Virus record (IMG/VR): IMGVR_UViG_2737471839_000014
From: a virus
Taxonomy: Duplodnaviria > Heunggongvirae > Uroviricota > Caudoviricetes
DNA length: 24,071 bases
Reading direction: 5' to 3' (one strand)
The position numbers were made by a program, and so were the translations under genes. Below are positions 7,911 through 24,071 of this stretch, in pieces. A model generated the notes under the pieces. It was given only the letters and a program-made list of their open reading frames with translations. It was not told the origin of the DNA and made no database searches. Each line of letters starts with the position of its first letter. The stretch's first letter is position 1.

Positions 7911-8186
7911 TTACTCAATAAAGATCATTGGCTTACCGTTAAAACGTTCATGCCGTGTGACCGTCCATTGTTGTCCGTCATAAACAACGCGATCCCCGCG
8001 CCGTGGGCGGTATCCCGAAGAAAACACCACCAGAGAGACCGCAGGTCCGGACAGAGCATTCAGCTCTGCCAGTGTTTCTCCCGGGATCACAGTCATATCG
8101 ACATCATTAATCGAGGCTGTCTTTCCCATCTTTCTAACCGTGATAGCATCCATACGCGCTGCCAGCCGGGAAAAGGGATCAGACAT
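7911..8186 (-). CDS. head-tail joining protein (gpFII-like)
   Basis: 91 aa; N-terminal MSDPFSRLAARMDAI and C-terminal RRGDRVVYDGQQWTV pattern resemble lambda FII (MADFDNLFDAAIARADE ... RRGDTLTIGEENFWV); immediately upstream of Z. Confidence 0.65.
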   Translation of the reverse strand: MSDPFSRLAARMDAITVRKMGKTASINDVDMTVIPGETLAELNALSGPAVSLVVFSSGYRPRRGDRVVYDGQQWTVTRHERFNGKPMIFIE

Positions 8187-8502
8187 TGAGTTTTACCGGC
8201 ACTTCTTCTGCACTGGTTCCGGCATCTGCCCAGACAACCCCGACCAGCGGATCAGAGCCGCTGTTAGTCAGCTGAACTTTTCCGGACTTCAGATAAACCT
8301 TCTTACCCGTTTTCATGTCATCCGTTTTCAGCTTAGGCAGCATAAACACACCTTCGGTCATGCCGTCGCCTGTTTCACCCTGTGGAATATCGGTCAGCGC
8401 CACCGCAAAAACATCGCCCACCTGCACCAGATCTCCGCTGCTGATGGCTGCACTGGCAACAATCGCCACCGTTTTTCCTTCTTCTACAAAATTCTTTGCC
8501 AT
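8179..8502 (-). CDS. head-associated protein of unknown function (FI position)
   Basis: ATG at 8502 preceded by GGAG; 107 aa product MAKNFVEEGKTVAIVASAAISSGDLVQVGDV...; lies between capsid gene and FII-like gene; function not recognised. Confidence 0.45.
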   Translation of the reverse strand: MAKNFVEEGKTVAIVASAAISSGDLVQVGDVFAVALTDIPQGETGDGMTEGVFMLPKLKTDDMKTGKKVYLKSGKVQLTNSGSDPLVGVVWADAGTSAEEVPVKLNV

Positions 8503-8543: not shown

Positions 8544-8566
8544 ACAAAAAAAGCCCTTACGGGCCA
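8544..8566 (-). terminator. putative intrinsic terminator after capsid gene
   Basis: minus strand GGCCCGTAAGGGC followed by TTTTTTTG in the 86-bp gap after the capsid stop; stem is short. Confidence 0.3.
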
Positions 8567-8588: not shown

Positions 8589-10547
8589 TTACGCCGTACA
8601 TTTCACCAGACCGCGGTGATCAACTGGCGCGACACCGGCGTCAATACGCACTTTCGTTGTCACGCCATCCACACTGAAGCCCTCCATCTGATCAATATAT
8701 GGCGTATCCACACCGTTGAGATAAGCCACTTCAATCGTATCGGAGCCTTTTGACGCAGCCAGGTAGAAGGTGGTCTGGCTGTTATCATCAAGACGAGGCT
8801 CTGCAATAACGGTCGCAAAATCTTTCACCGGGTTAATAATACCGGCGTTAATGTCAGCCCCCTTGACACTTGAGGAGCGAATGACCTGGTTAGCAACAGA
8901 CTCCATCGCCGTCGGTACCAGTACGAACGCAGGACGAATATTCAGATGACGCTCCCCCTCTTTCTGAACGCGCATCAACTGGCGGGCTTTATCCAGCGAT
9001 GCCACGTCCATTGCAGCGCTCTCCAGTACGTTTGCATGTTTCGCTTTATCGAACAGACTTACATTATCTGTGGAGATTTTCGGGTTAGACGTCAGAATGG
9101 CATAAACCAGATCGGCAATAGTGGATTTCGCCGCACGGCCCAGTTTCATCGGGACATCGGTCAGCATATTCAGATCATCATTGATAATGGCCTGACGGGT
9201 GATACTGAACAGCTCGCCATAGGTCGCCAGTGCAATAGTGGCCTGTTTATCTCCGGTGGTGACGTATTTATATTCCGCCCCTTCACGCACCTGACGTAGA
9301 GCACTGAAGCCCCCCATACCCACACGATGGGCAATTTTAAAATCAGACAACTGACCTTTCCGCGTCCACTGTTCATAGGTTTCAGGGGCATCTTCCCAGC
9401 CCTGCAGAATGGCTTTGTTCGCAACATCCAGCAGAATATTACCGAAGTCAGACGTACTGTGTGTGAACGCCGCACCGACCATCTGCATCGGGTTATAACC
9501 GGAAACCCCAATACCCCGTTCAGTTAGTGACATACGGGCATATTCACGCAGGGTCATCCCGTTGTAGACATTATCACGTTCGGTTTTTTCAAATCCGGCA
9601 CGCGCCATCAGCGCCTGGCGAATCCCGTCCCCCACAAAATTACCGTTACCGGCATAAATATGAGCCGGGGTATTTTTATTGGATGGCGTGGACTCGCGCC
9701 CCATCTCGTTCAACAGCTTTTCACGGGCCTGCTCCAGCGAACATTCAGGATCGGCAAGACACTGGGCCTGCAGCGTCTGATAACGCCCGCCAAACATGGC
9801 AAACAGATCATTAATACCGTTTACACGCGCTTTTTGCTCTGCCAGTACCTGCGCACGGATACTGTTTTCATCCACCACGGGTGCTGCTGCCTGCACTGGC
9901 GTCCGGGAGGCTGCAGGTTCATCATCCTGTACGCGTGGAGCACTGTTGCGTGGCGGAGTAATCATGTTTCGAATGGATTCCGGCATCTTTTTAAATTCCT
10001 CTGTACGTTTTGACTGAATACATGCCATTGCCTTAACGGCTGGTGTCACCTGATCAGCAAATCCCTGTGCCAGACATTCGGCACCGGACATCCAGGTCTC
10101 ATCCGCCAGCATGGCAGCAATTTCATCGGTGGTTTTCCCGGTTTTCTGTGCATAAGCGGGTAACAGAACCGCCTCAACTTTATCGAGCAGGTCGGCATAG
10201 GTGCGCATGTCCTCCGCATCACCGCCCGTAAAGCCAAATGGTTTATGAATCATCATGAAGGAGTTTTCCGGCATAATGACCGGGTTTCCCACCATCGCAA
10301 TGACCGACGCCATTGACGCCGCCACACCGTCGACATAAACGGTAATGGACGCACCATGTGTTTTCAGTGCATTAAAAATGGCGATGCCTTCAAAGACATC
10401 GCCACCCGGTGAATTAATATGGAGATTAATGTGGGTGATATCGCCCAGTGCATTCAGATCACTGATAAACTGCTTCGCTGTAACACCCCAGAAACCAATC
10501 TCGTCATAAATATAAATATCCGCGTCACTCTGGTGACCTGCCTGCAT
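8589..10547 (-). CDS. ClpP-like prohead protease fused to HK97-fold major capsid protein
   Basis: single ORF; N-terminal region YIYDEIGFWGVTA...INSPGGDVFEG...MASVIAMVG has ClpP/S49-like protease motifs; long C-terminal region is capsid-like; ATG at 10547 is the first ATG after the portal stop; track ORF extends to 10808 in a frame overlapping portal. Confidence 0.8.
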   Translation of the reverse strand: MQAGHQSDADIYIYDEIGFWGVTAKQFISDLNALGDITHINLHINSPGGDVFEGIAIFNALKTHGASITVYVDGVAASMASVIAMVGNPVIMPENSFMMIHKPFGFTGGDAEDMRTYADLLDKVEAVLLPAYAQKTGKTTDEIAAMLADETWMSGAECLAQGFADQVTPAVKAMACIQSKRTEEFKKMPESIRNMITPPRNSAPRVQDDEPAASRTPVQAAAPVVDENSIRAQVLAEQKARVNGINDLFAMFGGRYQTLQAQCLADPECSLEQAREKLLNEMGRESTPSNKNTPAHIYAGNGNFVGDGIRQALMARAGFEKTERDNVYNGMTLREYARMSLTERGIGVSGYNPMQMVGAAFTHSTSDFGNILLDVANKAILQGWEDAPETYEQWTRKGQLSDFKIAHRVGMGGFSALRQVREGAEYKYVTTGDKQATIALATYGELFSITRQAIINDDLNMLTDVPMKLGRAAKSTIADLVYAILTSNPKISTDNVSLFDKAKHANVLESAAMDVASLDKARQLMRVQKEGERHLNIRPAFVLVPTAMESVANQVIRSSSVKGADINAGIINPVKDFATVIAEPRLDDNSQTTFYLAASKGSDTIEVAYLNGVDTPYIDQMEGFSVDGVTTKVRIDAGVAPVDHRGLVKCTA

Positions 10548-10560
10548 CCTGAACCAGGAA

Positions 10561-12069
10561 TTATTCTTCGGACTGGTCGTCGGTGTGCTGCGGCTCCTGT
10601 CGTTTCGTTGCGGCACTGCTGCCTCCTTTATCACTGGCCGGATCGGTATCAAATACCAGATCCAGCTTGCGGTTTTCATCAATTTCGGCCTTGCGCCGAC
10701 GTTTGACATCATCCGGATTACGACCACCTGCACGTACCCAGTCTGATTCTGTCGCCGCTCCACCACGAATCTGAATTTTCCAGGCCTCAGCCTCCTTAAC
10801 AGGGTCAATCCACGGCATCACCGGTCCGGAATACACCGCGGTATACAGTGAAGAACGATCAAGATCGCGGGGTAGCCTGATAACACCGGATGCCACAGCC
10901 TGTTTCAGCCAGGCACGATACATCGGGCGGGTGACGGCACCAATAAACCAGTCCTGCAGGATCAGGTAGCCATCAGTGGATTCAACCAGCTCCTGACGCT
11001 GGGCGCTGTAAGTGCCGTTATAGTTGCGTGCCGTACTGGAAAAACTCAGACGACTGCCCGCCGCCACGGCACGCAACTGACCATTACGAAAAGTTTCAAG
11101 GTTAGGATTGGGACGATCCGACTTCACCATTCCGATTTCTTCGCCGGGTTTCAGATCGTCGTAAATAATGCCTGGCTGAATGGTAAGCTCGCGTTCATTC
11201 TCCTTGCTGCCATTACCATCCGGTTCATAGCTCTGCCCGTCGCCTTTCCGGATGTACATCCCCAGAGCAGCGGCGATCCTTGCTGCAGTCAGCTCAGAAT
11301 CTTCATACTCTTTCAGGGCACTGAGGCGGATCAGCACACCGGACAACAAAGACGTCCCGCGCATCTGGTGCAGACGGCGAACAAATTTAAGATGCAGCAT
11401 TCGCTCTGCATCCACTTCTTTGGTTTCCATCTGCCGCCCGGATACGGGACGGCTTTTATACACCAGATATTTTTCGGGACGCCCCCAGTCATCAACAAAC
11501 ACGCCCTGATTCAGCCTGTTGCTCTCATCACTGGTCATGGGAATAAAGTCCGGCTCGAGCGCCTCCAGCCAGAAATGAACACCGGCAGAAGGCGTCAGGC
11601 TGTTTATGCGCCCGGAAACCATCTGGGCAAACACCTCACCATCGCGCAGCCAGGTACGCAGCATCAGACGTTCCAGCATCGGACGGGTAAACTGCCCGGT
11701 GACTTCCGGACTGACAGACCATTCACTCCATCGGGTGCGTATCTCCGCTGCCAGATCACGGGCAATGGCCCCATTGCGTAATACCGGATGTGGCTCGACA
11801 ATAATCCCGTTTTTCCCCACCACCCGTTCTTCCAGCTTGTCAAATACACCAATAACCAGATCGTGGTTGTTATCAAGGTAACGGGCCTGCTCACGTAACG
11901 ACACGGCCCCGTACTGGCTTAACTGGTCGGCAGTTCGGTTTTCCCGCCGGGCTTTGTGTGTCCGTGTCGTTTTTACGGCCTCATAAGCCTGGATCACCGC
12001 ACGGGAACGCAGCCTTGCCGCTTTCCATCCTGGTGAAAAAACGCCAATCACATCATCAAGAATTGCCAT
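10561..12069 (-). CDS. portal protein (lambda gpB family)
   Basis: about 502 aa; ATG at 12069 overlaps W stop; position between W and the protease-capsid gene; size and composition typical of lambda-family portal; track start at 12141 is a GTG. Confidence 0.85.
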   Translation of the reverse strand: MAILDDVIGVFSPGWKAARLRSRAVIQAYEAVKTTRTHKARRENRTADQLSQYGAVSLREQARYLDNNHDLVIGVFDKLEERVVGKNGIIVEPHPVLRNGAIARDLAAEIRTRWSEWSVSPEVTGQFTRPMLERLMLRTWLRDGEVFAQMVSGRINSLTPSAGVHFWLEALEPDFIPMTSDESNRLNQGVFVDDWGRPEKYLVYKSRPVSGRQMETKEVDAERMLHLKFVRRLHQMRGTSLLSGVLIRLSALKEYEDSELTAARIAAALGMYIRKGDGQSYEPDGNGSKENERELTIQPGIIYDDLKPGEEIGMVKSDRPNPNLETFRNGQLRAVAAGSRLSFSSTARNYNGTYSAQRQELVESTDGYLILQDWFIGAVTRPMYRAWLKQAVASGVIRLPRDLDRSSLYTAVYSGPVMPWIDPVKEAEAWKIQIRGGAATESDWVRAGGRNPDDVKRRRKAEIDENRKLDLVFDTDPASDKGGSSAATKRQEPQHTDDQSEE

Positions 12070-14874: not shown

Positions 14875-15037
14875 ACCCGCTCCAGAATGTTTTAAACATG
14901 CATCTTGCGAACAACTTTAGGCAAACGGTGTTAGTGATGAACAAAAAACAATCAGAATCGACACCATAAAAATAAAACCACTGTAATATCAATCAATTAC
15001 AGTAGTGGTGATGACGAATAAAATTTCAAAAACTAGC

Positions 15038-15072
15038 CTTTTTCCGCGACGCTCCCGCCCCGTGGTAGGGAC
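15038..15072 (-). other. candidate cohesive end site (cosN-like)
   Basis: minus strand reads ACCACGGGGCGGGAGCGTCGCGGAAAAAGG, close to recalled lambda cosN TTACGGGGCGGCGACCTCGCGGGTTTTCGC; distance to the Nu1-like start is about 185 nt as in lambda. Confidence 0.4.
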
Positions 15073-15426
15073 CCCCACTGGGAGGACCCGACAGCCTGAC
15101 AACCGTTACGAGCATCTGAAACAGAGCTTTACATAATGGCATGGGGATAATTCAGAAGGACATCACAGCATGCCCACACAAATTAGTGTGAGTGTCCTGT
15201 TTCTTACTACGCGCAGGACTGACGAGCATGAGGGGAAAATACGCGAACCGAAATGCCTTATCTTCAGAAATGCAGCCGGCATCCGAACTGGACGATATTG
15301 TAAATTCACCTAAATACGAGGCATTGCTGTAGTTGAATTGCAGTACTGTATTAGCCTTACAGTGACAGAATACGATATTGACTCTGTCACTTGTGAAATG
15401 GTCAGAATGGTTAGCAGTTATGGTGA

Positions 15427-15633
15427 TCAGTCAACCACCAGGGAATAATCCTTCGTATTCTTATCGTGCTTTACTAACGCGGCCTCAATTGCCCTGAATG
15501 CTTCCAGAGATACTTGATGTTCTATACATGCAATTACAACATCCGGGTAACCCATCGAAATGGTGCTATTAAGCATAGTTTTTACACGAACCTGCTCCTG
15601 GGAGGGGGCATCAGTGTATTGATCTTTATGCAT
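15427..15633 (-). CDS. hypothetical protein (moron between lysis genes and cos)
   Basis: 68 aa ORF; ATG at 15633 preceded by GGAG at good spacing; no recognised domain. Confidence 0.45.
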
Positions 15634-15840
15634 TTTGTCGCTCCATTCGTTTGCTCTTCACTTGCGGCTAAAAATATAACGTCAAATCACTCAGCATGAA
15701 AGAGTGAAAGTTTCAGCGCGTTTCCCTTACATAATCTGTCGTTTGTATTCTCTTCAGGCATACCGGAAAGACTAGGTATTGTCACACAACCAATACCATC
15801 GACAATCGAGATTTATATCTATTCGGTAATGTTTAAATAT

Positions 15841-15863
15841 AACAAAACCCCGTAAAAACGAGG
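15841..15863 (-). terminator. putative intrinsic terminator downstream of gnsB-like ORF
   Basis: minus strand CCTCGTTTTTACGGGG followed by TTTTGTTATATTT. Confidence 0.4.
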
Positions 15864-15928
15864 TTTATGGGTAATTTGTATTGTTGAATAGCATCTGATG
15901 AGAAATTGATGCTAATACTATAAACATG

Positions 15929-16101
15929 CTAGATTAAATCAATCTTGATATCATAGCTTTCAAGACCAGTCATTTTTTCCCGTGCAGTAAACTGGATACT
16001 GGTAACTTCTTTCCCGGTCTTTTTCTTAAGCTCAATGATTTTTTTTGTTATATATTCAGAAATATCTGCTTCTGTTTTTGTTTTTAACTCTTCAATGTTC
16101 A
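15929..16101 (-). pseudogene. gnsB-like small protein gene, apparently frameshifted
   Basis: ATGATG at 16104/16101 after GAGGAA; reads MNIEELK, hits stop after 17 codons; a second frame continues KTKTEADISEYITKKIIELKKKTGKEVTSIQFTAREKMTGLESYDIKIDLI to TAG at 15929; one extra A in the A4 run would give an intact 57 aa GnsA/GnsB-like protein (family assignment from memory). Confidence 0.4.
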
Positions 16102-16274
16102 TCATTTCCTCTTTTAGTCTGTTATGACTGTCCTAGTACACAGTAGTGTCAATTATATGGAGCAAACGTATAAAAGATAAGATGAAACATCGCAATAATC
16201 AACATACGACGGTCTAAATTTCACACAAACAGATAAAGATGATTATCATTTATTATCAATGCATTAGAATCAAA

Positions 16275-16466
16275 TCAATTCAAGAGTCTCATTGCTGCTT
16301 CCAGAATTTCTTCTGAAGTTACATGTCGATCCGCTGCTACATAAATGACTTTATGATCTCCGGTCAGAGATGGAAACCCTGCAGCCATTACAGTGAGGTG
16401 TGTTGTTTCGCCATTTGGATATTCACGCATGATGGTGTTAACTCCGGTCATCACTGGCACTACCAT
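16275..16466 (-). CDS. hypothetical protein
   Basis: 63 aa ORF, ATG at 16466 but no obvious SD; no recognised domain. Confidence 0.35.
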   Translation of the reverse strand: MVVPVMTGVNTIMREYPNGETTHLTVMAAGFPSLTGDHKVIYVAADRHVTSEEILEAAMRLLN

Positions 16467-16546
16467 TGCTGGTTCAGAGTTAAAAAAACTATTATTTTTT
16501 TCATAATGTTACCGTAATATGTGAGTATCCATCGACTAGACACTAA

Positions 16547-16569
16547 GCAAAAAAGCTCCCGAAGGAGCC
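16547..16569 (-). terminator. putative intrinsic terminator
   Basis: minus strand GGCTCCTTCGGGAGC followed by TTTTTTGC; about 200 nt downstream of the csp stop. Confidence 0.45.
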
Positions 16570-16775
16570 TTCATTTTCACTTTCTTAAATCTAACGACAG
16601 ATGGCTAACATTTAAGTATTGTGAAATATTATCAAATGTAATCATCATTGATTTACAAAAGATACATTTTGCCCCGAAAGGATTTCTGTCAGAAACATCA
16701 AAAGATGATGTTCTATACTGAGAACCATGGCAACACGGGCATCTAAAGTGAATATGGTTTGTAATATTTTCTACC

Positions 16776-16988
16776 TCAAAGTGCCACTACATGAACAGCT
16801 GCAGGGCCTTTAGGTCCGTTCTCAATACCAAATTCGACTTCCTGATTCTCAGTTAACGTTTTGAAATCGTTGCTCTGAATAGCTGAGAAATGCACAAACA
16901 CATCTTTGCTACCATCTTTCGGCGTGATGAAACCAAAACCTTTTTCAGGGTTAAACCATTTCACTAAACCAGTCATTTTGTTAGACAT
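16776..16988 (-). CDS. cspI: cold-shock protein, CspA family (CspI-like)
   Basis: 70 aa [38 protein letters not shown]... with canonical cold-shock domain motifs (RNP1-like KGFGFI, VFVHF); ATGATG start at 16991/16988; long AT-rich 5' leader typical of csp genes. Confidence 0.85.
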
Positions 16989-17351
16989 CATTATTACCTT
17001 TTGAAGAAGTTAGCCCTTGGGCAGAATGGTCCGAAAAAAAATATCAGAGAGAAAAACCAACAAGGAAATCTCAAGAGGTACAAATAATAAAATTATAACA
17101 ATGACTGCTTCAGATAATTTTGTAACAAACCAGAACACCATTAACGCATGATTAACCAACCATAGCAAGGATTACTTTTGTAAAGAAAAACACACGAATG
17201 AAACAATAGCTTTATTTATTAATAAAACGTGTCATTCTGTCTAATGACCTTTTATCTTACCCTTAAGATTTCAAGGATTTTGACTCATGGAAGAGTCCTT
17301 TTTATTTAAATTTCACATTCAGCGCTAAAAATAATCCGATTTAATATTAAT

Positions 17352-18374
<1,023 letters not shown>

Positions 18375-18378
<4 letters not shown>

Positions 18379-18686
18379 AGATATTTATGATGAGGACGCT
18401 CGTGCTTATTGGCAGGATTTTCAATCTTAAAGGAGTACTGATGCTGCAGATAAGACTCAACTTTTTCTGACAATTTTTCTGCTACTTCCAGGAAGACTTG
18501 CCGGACGCTCATTCTGGCTGCTGCCTCATAAAACTCCAGCGCAGCTCCTTCAACACGGTCCATGGCGACATCCAGGCCAAAAATTTCACCGTCAAAGCGT
18601 TCTTTGTCCCGTAACGCTAAAGTTACCGTAACTTTATTCTCAAAATTGCGGATCCCTTTCACAATCAGTTCATATTTTTGAGTCAT
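18375..18686 (-). CDS. YdfR-like protein (unknown function) between holin and endolysin
   Basis: 103 aa soluble ORF, ATG at 18686 with GGGAGAG SD; same size and position as ydfR of E. coli K-12 Qin (between essQ and rrrQ); identity by synteny and length only. Confidence 0.6.
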
Positions 18687-18690
18687 TGAA

Positions 18691-18906
18691 TTACTCTCCC
18701 CGTGCAGCCTTACGCTTGTCTTCTTTAATCTTGAAATAAAGGTTTGTCAGGTACGTCAGCAGGCCAAATACCAGGCTACCCAGCACACCTATTGCTGCCC
18801 ACTGTGAGGGCGTGACTTTATCGAGCAGCTGTAAAAACCAGTAGCCAGCACTGCCTGCGGAGGTGCCGTAGGCAATGCCTGTTGAAATTTTGTCCATGGA
18901 TTTCAT
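18691..18906 (-). CDS. class II holin (phage 21 S21-like pinholin) with dual-start motif
   Basis: [71 protein letters not shown] closely matches recalled S21; Met-Lys-Ser-Met dual start (ATG at 18906 and 18897); GGAGGTGA SD; track ORF extended upstream in frame. Confidence 0.85.
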
Positions 18907-19007
18907 AGCCTCACCTCCGCACGGAACGGATGGCATAGTTATTATGTGTAAGCTTCCAGACACATCAATCAGAGCCTTAATTGATATATATGCTGGAGAC
19001 GATGCAA

Positions 19008-19032
19008 TATAAAAAGCTCGCCGTAGCGAGCT
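19008..19032 (-). terminator. intrinsic terminator downstream of lipoprotein pair
   Basis: minus strand AGCTCGCTACGGCGAGCT (7-bp stem) followed by TTTTTAT; between lipoprotein 2 stop and holin start. Confidence 0.5.
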
Positions 19033-19157
19033 AATAAAATGTATTTCTCTGATATTATGTTTATTTGTATTAGCTCAGACTTGACATCACAGGTTTCGTA
19101 TATAGAACATCATCAAATCTGTCAGTTTGCTATGAATGAGATATAGTAATTGAAGAG

Positions 19158-19553
19158 CTAACCTCGCATGTCAAAGCCAGATTTCTGAAAATCTCTGTAG
19201 ACTTCCGGATTGTTGAAGGCCGGAAATTTGGCTTTATGAGCTGCGGACTTTATCGCTTCGCAATAGGCTTTATCACCGTTACTGGTAGATATTTTTAACG
19301 CCGTGCCATCCTGAGAGAATTCCATATGCAACCTGCATTTTTTCCCTTTCCAGTTATGCGGCTCATCAAGTTTGGCATTAATTGCAGCTCTGATTCCCCG
19401 CGCTTGCGCCCCCCATTCATCCTGATCATCCCAGCGTCCTGAACTGCAACTACCTGTAGCAGTAGTTTTGTGGCAATCTGAAGGGTGTAAAGGTGTGCAT
19501 CCCGCAACAAAACCGACCCAAAAAGTCAACATAACGATTTTCTTTAATCCCAC
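19158..19553 (-). CDS. lipoprotein with diverged TolA C-terminal domain III-like fold (paralog 2)
   Basis: 131 aa; GTG start at 19553 with GAGGAG SD (alternative ATG at 19532); signal peptide with lipobox VAGC; C-terminal half ...KGKKCRLHMEFSQDGTALKISTSNGDKAYCEAIKSAAHKAKFPAFNNPEVYRDFQKSGFD shares spacing of Cys pair and Gly/Asp positions with paralog 1 and TolA domain III. Confidence 0.75.
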   Translation of the reverse strand: MGLKKIVMLTFWVGFVAGCTPLHPSDCHKTTATGSCSSGRWDDQDEWGAQARGIRAAINAKLDEPHNWKGKKCRLHMEFSQDGTALKISTSNGDKAYCEAIKSAAHKAKFPAFNNPEVYRDFQKSGFDMRG

Positions 19554-19703
19554 TTCTTGCTCCTCAATCCATTAAAATCTCAGCAATAGTAGTTGTTACG
19601 TCCGCCACTGGCTCAGAGCTGACTATCCGCTAAATTTAGCTCAGTGCCGTAGTTGTGTCAGAACAAACCTAAGCCGAAACCGTTTATTACAAAACAATAA
19701 ATA

Positions 19704-20132
19704 TCAGGGTTTAAAATCCAGCACCCCATTTTGAAATACTTTATATACTTCCGGCGAAGGGGGGGCAGGTATATCAGCATTCTTTATCGCATTCATCGCT
19801 TCACGACATAAATCGAGGTATCCACTTTCTCTTTTAACCTCCAGTAGAAGGCCATTCGGGGCCATATGCATTCTCAGTGTACACTCTTTTCCTGAATACT
19901 TACTCGCATCCCCGAACTGTTTTTCGATGGCGCTCTTGATTTGATGGGCATACAGACGGATATCCTCACTAACATCAGAAGTACGTTCAGATGAACTCAC
20001 ATACTGTGTCTCTATTGCTTTATCGGAGTAATATGATGTACGGTCATGATAATTTGTCGATACAGCATCAGTGCACCCGATAATAATCCCACTAATAATC
20101 AACGTAAGAATTGATGCGCTACGAAAACCCAT
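19704..20132 (-). CDS. lipoprotein with TolA C-terminal domain III-like domain (paralog 1)
   Basis: 142 aa; ATG at 20132 with GAGGA SD; signal peptide MGFRSASILTLIISGIIIGC (lipobox IIGC, Thr at +2); C-terminus YAHQIKSAIEKQFGDASKYSGKECTLRMHMAPNGLLLEVKRESGYLDLCREAMNAIKNADIPAPPSPEVYKVFQNGVLDFKP aligns with recalled E. coli TolA C-terminus YAGQIKSAIESKFYDASSYAGKTCTLRIKLAPDGMLLDIKPEGGDPALCQAALAAAKLAKIPKPPSQAVYEVFKNAPLDFKP. Confidence 0.8.
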   Translation of the reverse strand: MGFRSASILTLIISGIIIGCTDAVSTNYHDRTSYYSDKAIETQYVSSSERTSDVSEDIRLYAHQIKSAIEKQFGDASKYSGKECTLRMHMAPNGLLLEVKRESGYLDLCREAMNAIKNADIPAPPSPEVYKVFQNGVLDFKP

Positions 20133-20831
20133 TTTTCCTCACATATGTCATATAGTAAAGGATTATATATACCGTTGTTTTGGACGCTCAAACAGCGAAT
20201 CAGATCAAATAAAACGCACATTTGTTAACATTTACACAAAGTCTGCGTGGGATATTCTGAAAGAATATCCATAATGTGGAGAGAATCTATTGAAGTGCAT
20301 GGTGCCGGGTGCCTCCCGGTGAATTCAGTACCAGCACCTGAATCCACGATTATCCCATATACCTACTCGCTGATTGCCCCTCCGCATAGGGGGATTCACC
20401 ATGCCAGTTTCTTTTAACAAACTCCCCGCAAACCAGACAACAGTCAACCGCCTGAATTGTGAAGTATTTAAAAATTTCTCCCGCTAACTGATACCCGGCT
20501 AACAGTCTGGCGTTTTCTTTTTCAGCAACGGGAAAGCAACAACCACCACACCCGCCACCAGCACACCGTCAGCCAGCACTGACATTATCCGGCTGCTGCA
20601 ATGCCATTCACAAAAACAGTAAGCAATCACTTTTTACCGTAACAGGTGATAATCCAGATATGTATCTACCCCAGATGAGTAATCCGAAGTTCATCCATAC
20701 CACAGGTCCTGGCTATTCTGTTGTACTCCTGAACAAGAGCAAATAATTCTGAATTAGCAACCATGAACTCATCGCAAACCCTCTGTATAGCATCACTATT
20801 CAGAATAATAACGTCTCTTCCCGAAAGACGA

Positions 20832-21245
20832 TCAGGAGTACAGAACAAAACTGTCAAACGGCTGAAGGCCTTTGCTCGTGCTGCATTGACTATACAACAC
20901 CATTGCGCCGGTACCATAACGGTGAATGACGGTTTCGCTGTGATGATAATCGCCGTGTGGCCACTGGCAGGATTTAATATGGCGCAACAGCCAGTCAGAC
21001 AATGCACCAGCACCACCAGCAGCACGAATCACCCGTGCGTTACTGAAAAACGGCAGCAATGTTTTGTCTTCCACCAGCGGCTGGCGAGCGGCAGGGACGA
21101 CCCCGGACGGCAGATTACGCATGCTTTTCGGTTCCGGCTCCACCAGTAACCGGGTATTGTGGAATACCGGCATGGATTCACGGCCCGGCTTAACGATCAC
21201 CAGCCCGAGTTCCGGTACCAGAACAGGTCGAAGTAATACCCGCAC
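20832..21245 (-). CDS. hypothetical protein in the late-regulator (Q) position
   Basis: 137 aa; GTG start directly after upstream ORF stop with GGAGG 4 nt upstream; no recognised motif; overlapped by an alternative-frame ORF (20666..21025). Confidence 0.35.
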   Translation of the reverse strand: MRVLLRPVLVPELGLVIVKPGRESMPVFHNTRLLVEPEPKSMRNLPSGVVPAARQPLVEDKTLLPFFSNARVIRAAGGAGALSDWLLRHIKSCQWPHGDYHHSETVIHRYGTGAMVLYSQCSTSKGLQPFDSFVLYS

Positions 21246-21246
21246 G

Positions 21247-21525
21247 TTACCTCCAGATGCGTTGCTGGAATGTGCGGGACGGACGCGGTGGGCGTTCGGA
21301 GTAAGGAAGCCTGACGGAGATTATCCAGTGACGGTAGTCGAGGCTAAGGGCTTTTTTAACCTCGCATCCGCGCCTGCGGTAACACTGAATGAGCCATTCG
21401 GCCTGTTCTTCAGTGCATGGGGGATGCTGGTACCAGTCTGACTTAAATGTGTGAGAATACCGCTCGTGCGTGTGGGCAAGAACGGTCGAATTATCATGAT
21501 TGTAATATTTTGCGTTGCGTGCCAT
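21247..21525 (-). CDS. hypothetical Cys/His-containing small protein
   Basis: 92 aa; ATG at 21525 with GGAGA SD; three Cys and several His (PPCTEE...CYRRRGCE); function not recognised. Confidence 0.4.
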   Translation of the reverse strand: MARNAKYYNHDNSTVLAHTHERYSHTFKSDWYQHPPCTEEQAEWLIQCYRRRGCEVKKALSLDYRHWIISVRLPYSERPPRPSRTFQQRIWR

Positions 21526-21591
21526 CGGTTTTCTCCGGTGGCACGGTGTTACTCAGCGGGAGTTCAGCCCCGCGCAAGATTGTAGATGAGT

Positions 21592-21843
21592 TTATTCTTC
21601 TGAAAAAGCAGAAAAGCCAGCTTTTATTCCGATCTCTTTCAATGCCTGTAATGAAGTGACAAACTCACCGTCGCGCAAGATAAATCCGTCCGTCACTCGG
21701 GCATCCACAAAATTAATTAACGCAGCCCCATTTTTTTGCAAACACACAATGCGGTAATGACTAGCAATATTTCCATTTTCAACGCACACAGCATAGAGGC
21801 CATCTTCACAAAAAATTTTACGCAGTTCTTCGATGTTCATCAT
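21592..21843 (-). CDS. hypothetical small protein
   Basis: 83 aa; ATGATG start at 21843/21840 with AAGGA SD; N-terminus MNIEEL shared with the gnsB-like ORF; same size and relative position as rem of K-12 Qin (not verified by sequence). Confidence 0.5.
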   Translation of the reverse strand: MMNIEELRKIFCEDGLYAVCVENGNIASHYRIVCLQKNGAALINFVDARVTDGFILRDGEFVTSLQALKEIGIKAGFSAFSEE

Positions 21844-21957
21844 CAGAATCCTTCCGGATAATTAGCTCTCCCCTTTAAGGGACCATCCCTCTTATCCCTG
21901 CGCGCTACTTAAGTATTTTTGATTCTATTCCGGCACCATCCAGAACTTCAAATGCGT

Positions 21958-21990
21958 TGAAAATAAAAACAAAAACCCGCCGAAGCGGGT
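21958..21990 (-). terminator. intrinsic terminator downstream of hokD
   Basis: minus strand ACCCGCTTCGGCGGGT (GC stem, TTCG loop) followed by TTTTTGTTTTTATTTT, about 70 nt after the hokD stop. Confidence 0.65.
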
Positions 21991-22059
21991 TAAGTGCGGG
22001 TGCGTTGAGGATGCCTGCCACATCAGAGGTGGCGAGGGATTTCTCACTCGCCGGGTCTC

Positions 22060-22215
22060 TTACTCCTCAGGTTCGTAAGCTGTGAAGACAGCGACCTCCG
22101 TCTGGCCGGTTCGGATTCGTACCTCGCAGAGGTCTTTCCTCGTTACCAGTGCCGTCACTATGACGGTTAAACAGATGACGATCAGGGCGATTAACATCGC
22201 CTTTTGCTGCTTCAT
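22060..22215 (-). CDS. hokD: Hok/Gef family type I toxin (HokD/RelF-like)
   Basis: 51 aa MKQQKAMLIALIVICLTVIVTALVTRKDLCEVRIRTGQTEVAVFTAYEPEE, matches recalled HokD; ATG at 22215 with AAGGAG SD; track ORF 22060..22272 is an in-frame upstream extension. Confidence 0.9.
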   Translation of the reverse strand: MKQQKAMLIALIVICLTVIVTALVTRKDLCEVRIRTGQTEVAVFTAYEPEE

Positions 22216-22472
22216 AGCCTGCTTCTCCTTGCCTTTCGGCACGTAAGAGGCTAACCTACATGTGTCTAGCATGAAATTGGCCTCAGATTAATGTTAAGCG
22301 TCTTGCAGGACGCGTAATGTTAACTGGGGCTTTTCTCTACCTGCCGTTGGTGTTCGTGCCCGAGGCAGATAGCCTCAAGCACCCGCAGTCATTCTACTTA
22401 ACTAAGATTTCCCCGCAAACCGTTTTGTCCAGCACAGTAAATATCCAACTAAACCAATGGAGTTCGCTGTAT

Positions 22473-22652
22473 TTACCGCCAGTATTCAATGCACATGACC
22501 GCCATGAACACCCCTAAAAAAAGGGCATTTATATATCCAAATATTAATATCAAAACATCAACTTTTTCCATATACCTTGCTGTGAAGATGATGGGCATAC
22601 ATGATGCGAACAACCAGAACGCAACAAACAAAAACTGCAATGCGTTTTTCAT
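22473..22652 (-). CDS. small membrane protein (two predicted TM helices), unknown function
   Basis: ATG at 22652 preceded by GGGGGA; 59 aa MKNALQFLFVAFWLFASCMPIIFTARYMEKVDVLILIFGYINALFLGVFMAVMCIEYWR; track ORF starts at upstream GTG. Confidence 0.4.
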   Translation of the reverse strand: MKNALQFLFVAFWLFASCMPIIFTARYMEKVDVLILIFGYINALFLGVFMAVMCIEYWR

Positions 22653-23134
22653 TATTCCCCCTACAATCAATGTGCAATAACATTTAAACACACCTCAATT
22701 TAGCCGGACATATAAATATCTAAACCAGAAAAAATCACTTACATAGCGTTACAAACTCTTTAGTCTAAATATTCATCGTAAAACATTCCCCATACTTATC
22801 AGCCCGTTCTGCGCCAGGTAGCTCATTGCCTTATCTGGGAACCTGTAATCAGGTTTCCGGATGCTGGTGGATTTTCGCGTTTTAGTTGTTCATAAAAGTG
22901 CACAGCTTTAACCAGTTCTTCTGATGTAACCGGGACTGGCGGGGCAGTGAATAAGGCCTGAATTTCATAGTTCGGCCTATCGTTACAATCCTCTTTTTTC
23001 GGTACATATTTCCAGTCACCAGACCACTACTTCCCCTGAAAGTCCGTAACGCCTTTTTTTCACGTAGCGATATCGCCATGCCACTGTTTTTGCTTGCCCC
23101 GCCGTTTCATGCCCTTCCTGATAATTAACCTCGC

Positions 23135-23311
23135 TCATTCATCGCCCCACTCATCACAATATGCTTCGACCGGAGTTTTTCCTGCTTCATAATCATCACG
23201 CCATGCTTCAGCATCAGCAGCACTGCCACCACGTAACTCTGCATAGTCCATTAACAGTTCATGCCATTCTTCAAAACCGACGTTGTATTTAGTTGAACCA
23301 AAATCAGCCAT
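23135..23311 (-). CDS. small acidic protein, unknown function (below ORF-track cutoff)
   Basis: 58 aa MADFGSTKYNVGFEEWHELLMDYAELRGGSAADAEAWRDDYEAGKTPVEAYCDEWGDE; ATG at 23311 preceded by GAGGAAG; translated by hand from the sequence. Confidence 0.35.
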   Translation of the reverse strand: MADFGSTKYNVGFEEWHELLMDYAELRGGSAADAEAWRDDYEAGKTPVEAYCDEWGDE

Positions 23312-23348
23312 TTTGTTCTTCCTCTTCGTCTTTTATTTCGTGATATGA

Positions 23349-23486
23349 TTAATTGCAGTAGTTAAAGAAAATATCTTTTGCTTCGTCATGTATTTCATCA
23401 GGCGTCGCATCATTATCCACTTCGAATTCATCCTCGAAATCTCCACCGGCTATTCCCGTTTCAATAATTATTTTAAACTTTCGCAT
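23349..23486 (-). CDS. small acidic protein, unknown function (below ORF-track cutoff)
   Basis: 45 aa MRKFKIIIETGIAGGDFEDEFEVDNDATPDEIHDEAKDIFFNYCN; ATG at 23486 preceded by AGGAGG and a GC hairpin; translated by hand. Confidence 0.3.
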   Translation of the reverse strand: MRKFKIIIETGIAGGDFEDEFEVDNDATPDEIHDEAKDIFFNYCN

Positions 23487-23891
23487 TTAACTACCGCCCT
23501 TTCGGGCGGCCTCCTGATGTTCTGAGGGTGCAGAAATCCCTCCGGTTAAGGATTAAATTTTTAACAGTGCTAAATTTAATTATTCAGTTCTGGATTTTGT
23601 CACCCTGCGTATCCGCGCTTTCCCGTTACGCTCAATCTGAATTAGCTTTTCTATATTTTTTCGCCTTTCCCGTTCCTCCTGGCGCAAGAGCCTTACATCA
23701 TCTGCCAGTCTGGTTTCTCTTTTCGCCACAGAGAGCATCCAGTCAAATGGCTCCACAACTGCACCTCAGATTTTACAGCGGACCTGACGCTCTTTTTCGT
23801 CAACCCGGACAGAAGCGTGATGGCAATATGGTCTTTCCGATGGCTCATAAAGAAAATTAACCTGATTACGAGGGTCATCCTCTTTTATCGG

Positions 23892-24071
23892 TGAACCGCC
23901 CCGGGTTTCCTGGAGAGTGTTTTATCTGTGAACTCAGGCTGCCAGATCATTGTTTCCGATGGAAGCATAATAAGCTTTTTCTGCTTCTGCCGGAGGAGTA
24001 TGGCCCAGCCTTCCCAGCAATCGTCGATTGTTATACCAGTCCACCCACGTGAGTGTGGCCAGTTCCACTTC
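23892..24071. mobile_element. end of an IS3-family insertion sequence (IS629/IS1203-like), truncated by window edge
   Basis: terminal sequence TGAACCGCCCCGGGTTTCCTGGAGAGTG starting at 23892 matches recalled IS629-type inverted repeat; followed by transposase 3' end on minus strand. Confidence 0.65.
23934..24071 (-). CDS. IS3-family transposase OrfB, C-terminal fragment (5' end outside window)
   Basis: minus-strand translation ...EVELATLTWVDWYNNRRLLGRLGHTPPAEAEKAYYASIGNNDLAA stop; resembles C-termini of IS3-family transposases. Confidence 0.7.
   Translation of the reverse strand, partial: EVELATLTWVDWYNNRRLLGRLGHTPPAEAEKAYYASIGNNDLAA

Follow-up and report, generated by a model that had tools for sequence, protein, structure and literature searches.

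The window analysed here, a stretch of 24,071 nucleotides of viral DNA (IMG/VR record IMGVR_UViG_2737471839_000014, Caudoviricetes), carries on its minus strand a long open reading frame (ORF) that encodes a ClpP-like prohead protease, a scaffold and a major capsid protein as one fused gene. Read from ATG 10547 to the TAA stop at 8591-8589, the frame comprises 652 codons without a stop or frameshift (ORF list and translation). Read from a GTG at 10616, it comprises 675 codons to the same TAA and is likewise free of stops, with a computed mass of 73.5 kDa for the full-length product. An original prediction, made from the letters of the DNA, had proposed one ORF with a ClpP-like protease, a central region and a capsid domain and with no separate scaffold gene, which Pfam, the NCBIfam model NF045540 and the gene context all bear out. 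The parts of the gene are listed below; residue numbers given for the parts in this list count from GTG 10616, i.e. they refer to the 675-residue version.

8589..10616, minus strand: whole coding sequence as called by the NCBI Prokaryotic Genome Annotation Pipeline (PGAP), from GTG 10616-10614 through 675 codons to TAA 8591-8589; WP_001136587.1 in identical DNA.
10622..10629, minus strand: Shine-Dalgarno (SD) sequence AAAGGAGG, five bases 5′ of GTG 10616 and within the 3′ end of the portal gene.
10545..10547, minus strand: ATG of the 652-residue version found in several phage records; it has a weak SD and is probably an internal Met (residue 24).
Residues 1-23, minus strand: variable, basic N-terminal extension (homologue alignment).
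10032..10547, minus strand: ClpP-type (S14) serine protease domain, residues ~24-195 (Pfam, NCBIfam and alignment to a ClpP structure).
Residues 196-225, minus strand: conserved boundary segment S-K-R-x-E-E-F-x-x-M-P (homologue alignment).
9984..10010, minus strand: candidate nested translation start, with AAA at 10010-10008, an AGGA core at 10000-9997, ten bases and then ATG 9986-9984 (Met211, followed by Pro212).
9870..9941, minus strand: variable linker rich in Pro, Ala and Gln, residues 226-249 (conservation and AlphaFold 2, AF2).
9687..9869, minus strand: helical central domain, residues 250-310, the presumed scaffold (delta-like, Nu3-like; AF2 and hhalign).
9630..9686, minus strand: short variable stretch and then an A-G-N-G-N motif, residues 311-329 (alignment and hhalign).
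8592..9629, minus strand: major capsid protein domain of the Mu gpT/Phage_capsid_4 type, residues ~330-675, ~38 kDa (Pfam and profile search).

The ORF is not a chance one. NF045540, the NCBIfam model named 'ClpP-like prohead protease/major capsid protein fusion protein', matches it end to end (residues 9-651 against model positions 2-651 of 652) with 986 bits at a cut-off of 475, PHROG 133 matches over the full length, and PGAP gives the identical gene the name of NF045540. At the DNA level, a stretch of 2.5 kb is 100% identical in many finished E. coli chromosomes, with a match in 2136 of the 5426 complete E. coli genomes, and identity to the phages phi458, cdtI, mEp460, Ayreon and others is ~99%. 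Protein identity over the full length amounts to ~77% for Shiga toxin (Stx)-converting phages and VT1-Sakai, 74% for mEp213 and LLS, 72.3% for Fels-1, 64% for a Providencia phage and 57% for the Pseudomonas MD8/F10 group (56.7% for MD8 itself). For Gifsy-2 it is 69.6%, and the comparison with Gifsy-type head modules that had been suggested is thus an apt one. Scanning genomes at the species level turned up 370 loci, spread over Enterobacterales, Pseudomonas, Pasteurellaceae, Shewanella, Photobacterium and further groups, and an exhaustive search among the representatives of 50%-identity clusters returned more than 100 fusions matching over their full length, with identities of 35-60%.

Because the 2.5 kb stretch recurs unchanged in many complete E. 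coli chromosomes, and because more than 100 of the cluster representatives match over nearly the full length, the fused state is not an assembly artefact. The opposite explanation, namely that protease and capsid have genes of their own and that the long ORF arose through an error in sequencing or assembly, could appeal to the single-base indel variants that exist in databases, to one relative that is frameshifted 13 codons before the internal ATG and to several ORFs of 1159 residues that fuse the portal to the gene. Yet the indel variants are singletons with differing junctions, and the fusion is kept in isolated plaque-forming phages as well as in the diverged clusters. In the window, the ORF is intact and identical to that of finished chromosomes, with no sign of the hidden frameshift or stop that had been named as the finding to look for; we regard an error of this kind as highly improbable. 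A programmed frameshift joining the portal to the fusion gene was also considered for the 1159-residue ORFs (more than ten singletons, alongside some ORFs of 1135 and 1080 residues) and rejected, as the junction positions all differ and hence point to independent one-base indels or sequencing errors. The frame of the fusion gene is open for 67 codons 5′ of GTG 10616, through the 3′ end of the portal gene (10561-10817, minus strand).

The N-terminal domain is matched by Pfam CLP_protease (residues 23-168, E 4.6e-36) and by NCBIfam NF045542 (217 bits against a cut-off of 120). A search of the PDB with the single protein sequence returned ClpP chains only, and the domain was aligned to the solved ClpP 1y7o. 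The catalytic residues Ser101 (10316-10314, in G-V-A-A-S-M) and His124 (10247-10245, in M-I-H-K-P) do not vary among 71 non-redundant homologues from genomes (53-99% identity), and the position of the catalytic Asp of ClpP, checked against E. coli ClpP, is occupied by Glu173 (10100-10098), which is Glu in 70 of the 71. The residue before Glu173 is variable; the triad would read Ser-His-Glu. AF2 assigns most of the domain a predicted local distance difference test score (pLDDT) of 73-89, with a dip in blocks 121-150. Models for the cellular ClpP equivalogs stay far under their cut-offs (TIGR00493, 60 bits against 308.6; NF011091, 60 bits against 361). The domain has the ClpP fold and the catalytic Ser and His, yet it is not a cellular ClpP. 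Of the 'ClpP/S49-like' protease in the original prediction, the ClpP type (S14) holds; S49 is not the class given by Pfam or NCBIfam.

The C-terminal part is matched by Pfam Phage_capsid_4 (residues 357-649, E 1.4e-54), within whose span Mu-like_gpT gives a weaker match (E 3.7e-8), so that the domain annotation proposed at the outset returns a protease family at one end of the chain and a capsid family at the other. A capsid-domain profile of the 71 homologues matches the solved Mu-GpT-type capsid proteins 8rkc/8rkx (E 3.5e-10) and 9jod (E 3.4e-8); solved capsid proteins were reached with this profile only and not with the single protein as the query. Lambda gpE has no detectable similarity to the capsid domain (hhalign probability 0.3%). 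AlphaFold, run on the whole protein with an alignment of 43 sequences, gave a mean pLDDT of 53, with confident prediction limited to the ClpP domain and the central helices, and the capsid domain modelled alone fared worse than in the whole-protein run (mean pLDDT 43.7). Through the profile links and the literature, an HK97 fold of the capsid domain is nevertheless well supported indirectly.

Public records carry at least eight names for the same gene, among them 'head-tail preconnector protein Nu3', 'terminase protein', 'Major head protein' and 'head maturation protease'. If labels such as 'head maturation protease', 'protease/scaffold' or 'Nu3' were taken at face value, the gene would encode a protease and scaffold only and the true capsid gene would lie elsewhere. 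However, the C-terminal 300 residues strongly match capsid families, other records call the same gene a major capsid or head protein, and among the genes of the window, as annotated by Pfam and PGAP, there is no other capsid-like gene between the terminase and tail genes and no separate scaffold or capsid gene between the portal and tail genes. One study on capsid architecture and prediction obtained no capsid protein of the HK97 fold for Gifsy-2, plausibly because that protein is hidden in the fusion, a cause that the study itself does not give. A capsid gene located elsewhere can hardly be right.

Between the two well-defined domains lies a region of alternating conservation. The conserved boundary segment after the protease is a short helix. 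The linker that follows it has the lowest conservation of the protein (mean identity 0.25), with indels among the homologues and an AF2 pLDDT below 50 without secondary structure. The central domain consists of three predicted helices (residues 250-273, 280-288 and 294-307; pLDDT 73-88), and hhalign aligns the protease and central region with lambda gpC residues 123-432, which include the Nu3 part (probability 88.4%, E 2.8e-6, 262 columns), the alignment ending at the A-G-N motif of the fusion protein. We consider this similarity to gpC/Nu3 moderate, and a scaffold role of the central domain is presumed by analogy with the Gifsy-2 and MD8 literature. Indels among the homologues occur directly before the invariant N324-G325-N326; the maturation cleavage that would free the capsid protein most likely falls within residues ~311-330, a candidate region that is a guess on our part. 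Removal of the central region by autoproteolysis, as the original prediction had it, is suggested by the published work on Gifsy-2. In distant fusions (35-50% identity), the protease/scaffold boundary carries a motif of approximately D-L-S-x-F-x-N-x-P in which Phe/Tyr and Pro are nearly invariant; this element (residues 204-212, ~9981-10007) could be a docking or a cleavage motif.

As for the 5′ end of the gene, GTG 10616 rather than ATG 10547 is probably the true start. The frame is open upstream of 10547, and PGAP picks GTG 10616 on 100%-identical DNA, giving 675 residues. The duplex energy with the anti-SD sequence is -11.6 kcal/mol at GTG 10616 versus -2.7 kcal/mol at ATG 10547, which by this measure makes the SD of the GTG the strongest among all in-frame start candidates, and AAAGGAGG followed by GTG recurs in mEp213 and in an Stx2d phage. 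The codon aligned with ATG 10547 is ATG in 43 of the 71 homologues and ATC, ATT, ATA or another non-start codon in 28 (Gifsy-2, Fels-1 and MD8 have ATC or ATT), S-W-F/Y directly upstream of it is conserved as protein, and the start with the best SD sits 22-27 codons upstream in most homologues. The 652-residue version is therefore probably 23 residues too short: the frame originally reported is correct, and its length probably is not. With the GTG start, the 5′ end of the fusion gene and the final 56 bases of the portal gene overlap in different frames.

The fusion architecture as such is already known from the NCBIfam family, a structural paper on Gifsy-2 from 2010, an analysis of MD8 from 2021 and routine PGAP annotation. 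Effantin et al. (2010, Virology 402:355) reportedly described a 'tripartite capsid gene' in Gifsy-2. The cryo-electron microscopy study of Gifsy-2 from that year is reported to have found T=7, HK97-like capsomers and a trimeric decoration. For MD8, PMC8508860 describes gp5 as a protease, a scaffold and a capsid protein in a single gene. It gives HHpred probabilities of 99.9% for the Mu capsid protein, 98.6% for HK97 and 99.9% for the similarity of the protease part to a lambda-like protease-scaffold, and its HHpred and Phyre2 results link gp5 to capsid proteins. That protease, scaffold and shell protein form one chain is thus a point made in 2010 and built into the naming rules of NCBI, and the fusion finding matters mainly for annotation.

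The only potentially new point is the candidate nested start at the protease/scaffold boundary. Translation from ATG 9986 is predicted to give a scaffold-capsid chain of 465 residues without the protease (computed mass 50.7 kDa). Met211-Pro212 is kept in all 71 homologues, and so is an AGGA or GGAG at a fixed distance, ten bases 5′ of the ATG. The residues encoded at this SD core vary (EE, ED, QE, KD or KE, with GD in viral contigs), yet its first codon is always GAG, CAG or AAG and never GAA, CAA or AAA in the 71 homologues. Column 206 is the sole one of 23 E/Q/K columns with G at the third position in 100% of the sequences, the others ranging from 2% to 79%. In line with this, the lowest ratios of observed to expected synonymous variation among 589 codons are those of codons 206 (0.00) and 203 (AAA, 0.09), the next being 0.32, and sliding windows of 5, 9 and 15 codons place the gene-wide minimum of synonymous variation at codons ~199-211. 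The internal ATG and its SD are conserved beyond what the protein sequence needs, given the invariant ATG, the synonymous constraint and the co-occurrence of the two described next.

Met211 gives way to Ala, Val, Ile, Thr or Pro in a set of 130 fusions that are more distant, and the following Pro is kept there; since other residues are found before the conserved Pro, Met211 is not structurally needed. In viral contigs, which form an independent set, an SD-like core is present in 61 of 61 sequences with the Met and in 1 of 13 without it. The RNA around the candidate start is also predicted to be accessible. From -15 to +5, the predicted accessibility has its median at the 79th percentile, does not fall below the 40th and exceeds the gene median in nearly all homologues, and the window sequence itself reaches the 94th percentile around the nested ATG.

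Two nested products, the 675-residue chain and a 465-residue scaffold-capsid chain from ATG 9986, would account for these observations, and we lean slightly towards this explanation, which competes only with the view that the gene makes one polypeptide. The shorter chain would build most of the shell, like HK97 gp5 with its delta domain, and a minority of full-length chains would bring the protease, much as C relates to Nu3 in lambda. In favour of two products are the invariance of ATG and AGGA/GGAG in 71 of 71 homologues despite the varying residues, the constraint on codons 206 and 203, the accessibility of the RNA, the dispensable Met of distant fusions, the co-occurrence in viral contigs and the moderate similarity of the region to C/Nu3 of lambda, for which a nested start is an established fact. 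On the other side, this support comes from sequence statistics, and the SD core, at -6 kcal/mol, is of moderate strength and does not reach that of the upstream GTG. The homologues with the Met form one clade, such that ATG and SD may have come to occur together in only a small number of independent events, and many distant fusions have no start codon at this position, so the architecture can evidently work without one. On balance, whether ATG 9986 is a functional second start is about as probable as that it is not. For the gammaproteobacterial clade as a whole (Gifsy-2, mEp460/cdtI, long-tailed Stx phages such as VT1-Sakai, and MD8), the case that the fusion gene is really a nested pair which also yields a protease-less chain is likewise evenly poised. 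The 'single polypeptide' of the original prediction is correct as a single ORF and may be incomplete as a description of the products, as the conserved internal ribosome-binding site and ATG suggest a second one.

Alternatively, the AGGA and ATG could belong to another nucleotide signal, such as an elongation pause or an RNA-processing or stability element, with only the full-length chain being made. Synonymous constraint proves selection on the RNA or DNA and not its purpose, and distant relatives do without the Met. However, such a signal would leave the invariant ATG at a fixed distance of ten bases unexplained, since Ala, Val, Ile or Thr are tolerated there in relatives, and the arrangement has the textbook geometry of a bacterial ribosome-binding site; we therefore consider a different signal unlikely. 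In the literature searched, which did not cover the primary 2010 paper on Gifsy-2, no mention of a nested start was found.

Two database proteins of 468 and 443 residues that start at Met-Pro were examined as independent support for the nested start and rejected, as neither is an independent gene call: one stems from a contig cut 35 bases upstream, the other from a one-base frameshift in a rearranged element. The latter (GCA_000755365.1; BBMQ01000056.1, 2396-4386) has a one-base frameshift that ends the protease ORF 13 codons before Met-Pro and keeps the AGGA core, and a protease of 206 residues and a scaffold-capsid protein of 443 residues are called there as separate genes. The locus has an unusual gene order: a portal gene is missing upstream, and the next gene after that of the capsid protein is a DUF1441 small-terminase gene. 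This may be a prophage in decay or an element resembling a satellite.

Around the fusion gene, the following features were annotated.

10561..12069, minus strand: lambda-family portal gene (Pfam Phage_portal_2, E 6.3e-82; PGAP; BLASTP against lambda gpB, E 3e-9).
8545..8565, minus strand: terminator-like element 24 bases 3′ of the stop, composed of the hairpin GGCCC-GTAA-GGGCT and a run of seven T (pattern scan and centroid fold).
8179..8502, minus strand: gene for a head decoration (cement) protein, directly downstream (Pfam Phage_cement_2, E 9.3e-21).

The apparent terminator after the gene, already noted in the original prediction, is confirmed as a hairpin with a run of seven T; the records of Ayreon and mEp460, both near-identical phages, label this element a terminator. 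A similar hairpin and T-run lies 3′ of the stop in at least 29 of the 71 homologues and in none of the in-gene control windows. The folding energy of the 53-base terminator stretch is no different from that of shuffled sequences (z -0.6), so the call is based on the pattern of hairpin and T-run and on its recurrence in homologues, not on folding energy.

On the minus strand, the genes follow the order DUF1441 small terminase, GpA-family large terminase (GpA_ATPase, E 1.6e-71; GpA_nuclease, E 1.1e-85), a small W-like gene, portal, fusion and Phage_cement_2. The cement gene, whose counterpart is annotated as head decoration in cdtI, mEp460 and MD8, is followed by a connector gene (PF13856 'Gifsy-2'), by Z and U, by a gene for a V-like tube protein that contains an Ig domain, and by G/T, the tape measure and the remainder of a lambda-type tail. 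The order portal-fusion-cement is also found in Gifsy-2, MD8, mEp213 and Fels-1. The 91-residue gene at the connector position (7911-8186, minus strand) is assigned by Pfam to PF13856 'Gifsy-2', described as 'ATP-binding sugar transporter from pro-phage', and by PGAP to a 'DNA breaking-rejoining protein', and is FII-like in the Ayreon record; the Pfam and PGAP names look like misnomers. G+C content falls from ~52-58% in the structural genes to 36-47% at ~15000-24071. In an identical E. coli chromosome, this region holds the Qin-type lysis genes essD, rrrQ, rzpQ and ydfR along with the cargo and cold-shock genes cspI, ymcF, ynfN, ynfR, gnsB and a DUF1398 gene. The prophage thus looks like a complete relative of Qin, which is defective in K-12.

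Among known systems, Gifsy-2 is closest in design. Its gene (STM1034.3n) likewise encodes a ClpP-like protease, a central region and a capsid protein in that order, and it too lies between a lambda-family portal with an overlapping start and a cement protein of ~107 residues, the PF13856 connector, Z, U and V. It also shares the internal ribosome-binding site and ATG. The fusion in the window has a shorter N-terminal extension and linker (675 versus 696 residues), with no difference in kind. The more divergent gp5 of MD8 comes from a different host genus, Pseudomonas, and keeps the Met-Pro boundary and the SD core (cAGGAg); the available part of PMC8508860 makes no mention of an internal start in MD8.

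Lambda offers a more distant parallel. In C/Nu3, as here, the protease is followed by the scaffold in one frame, and hhalign suggests distant similarity over both; the portal and terminase families are also common to lambda and this prophage. If the internal start is real, the logic of nested genes would be shared as well, with the Nu3 start (gpC residue 239) lying further upstream relative to the protease fold according to the hhalign placement. In contrast, the lambda C protease is an S49 enzyme and the one here is classed as ClpP (S14) by Pfam and NCBIfam, and the capsid protein E and the decoration protein D of lambda are separate genes of other families, whereas here the capsid protein is fused and the cement protein is not gpD. 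The earlier view of a head module unlike that of lambda combined with a lambda-like tail module thus holds for the capsid and cement proteins, which differ, and for the tail, which is of the lambda type. It fails for the terminase and portal, which are of lambda families, and is too simple for the protease-scaffold part, which itself appears distantly like gpC/Nu3 (hhalign 88%).

In HK97, the N-terminal delta domain of gp5 is a covalent scaffold segment that is removed by the prohead protease, and the capsid is stabilised by covalent cross-links. Here, too, a scaffold segment is joined to the N-terminus of the capsid protein. Unlike in HK97, the protease is fused as well and is of the ClpP and not the gp4 type, the capsid domain belongs to Phage_capsid_4/Mu gpT and not to the Phage_capsid family, and a separate cement protein is present.

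A further comparison is provided by NF045541 (scaf_prot_MCP2), e.g. in Ralstonia phage YO135_4, whose scaffold and capsid part is homologous from ~residue 197. The window protein scores 402 bits over residues 197-649, under the cut-off of 525, and is not a member of this family. YO135_4 (31% identity, tblastn) also has a protease-scaffold-capsid fusion with Met-Pro and a purine-rich stretch upstream at the domain boundary. Its N-terminal part does not match the ClpP-type domain. The Met-Pro lies at ~2500-2510 of the locus with gagagaggaaaacacc just 5′ of it, and YO135_4, as one sequence, may be an independent case of the same internal ribosome-binding site.

Taken together, the gene is very probably a 'tripartite capsid gene' of the Gifsy-2 type in a lambdoid E. 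coli prophage of the mEp460/cdtI group, most likely running from 10616 to 8589 on the minus strand and encoding 675 residues. By analogy with the known systems, full-length chains would assemble together with the portal into a procapsid of T=7 in which the protease and scaffold domains point inward. The protease would then cut away the protease, linker and scaffold, i.e. everything N-terminal of ~residue 311-330, and leave a capsid protein of ~38 kDa. The shell would expand as DNA is packaged, and the cement protein encoded downstream would bind to it as trimers and stabilise it. If the internal start at Met211 adds a protease-less scaffold-capsid chain, the ratio of protease to capsid protein need not be 1:1.

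Several points weigh against this account. The third catalytic residue is a Glu and not an Asp, so protease activity is no more than plausible. The AlphaFold models of the capsid domain are of low confidence, and the hhalign probability of 88% for the gpC/Nu3 similarity lies under the usual comfort level of 95%. Moreover, maturation, assembly and T number are carried over from Gifsy-2, HK97 and lambda.

Should the nested start prove true, this family of phages would combine the C/Nu3 strategy of lambda with the delta-domain strategy of HK97, the ratio of protease to capsid protein being set by translation. It would explain how one protease per capsid subunit in the procapsid is avoided. It would also offer a handle on the stoichiometry of head assembly in very common prophages of E. 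coli, Salmonella and Pseudomonas, including Shiga toxin phages.

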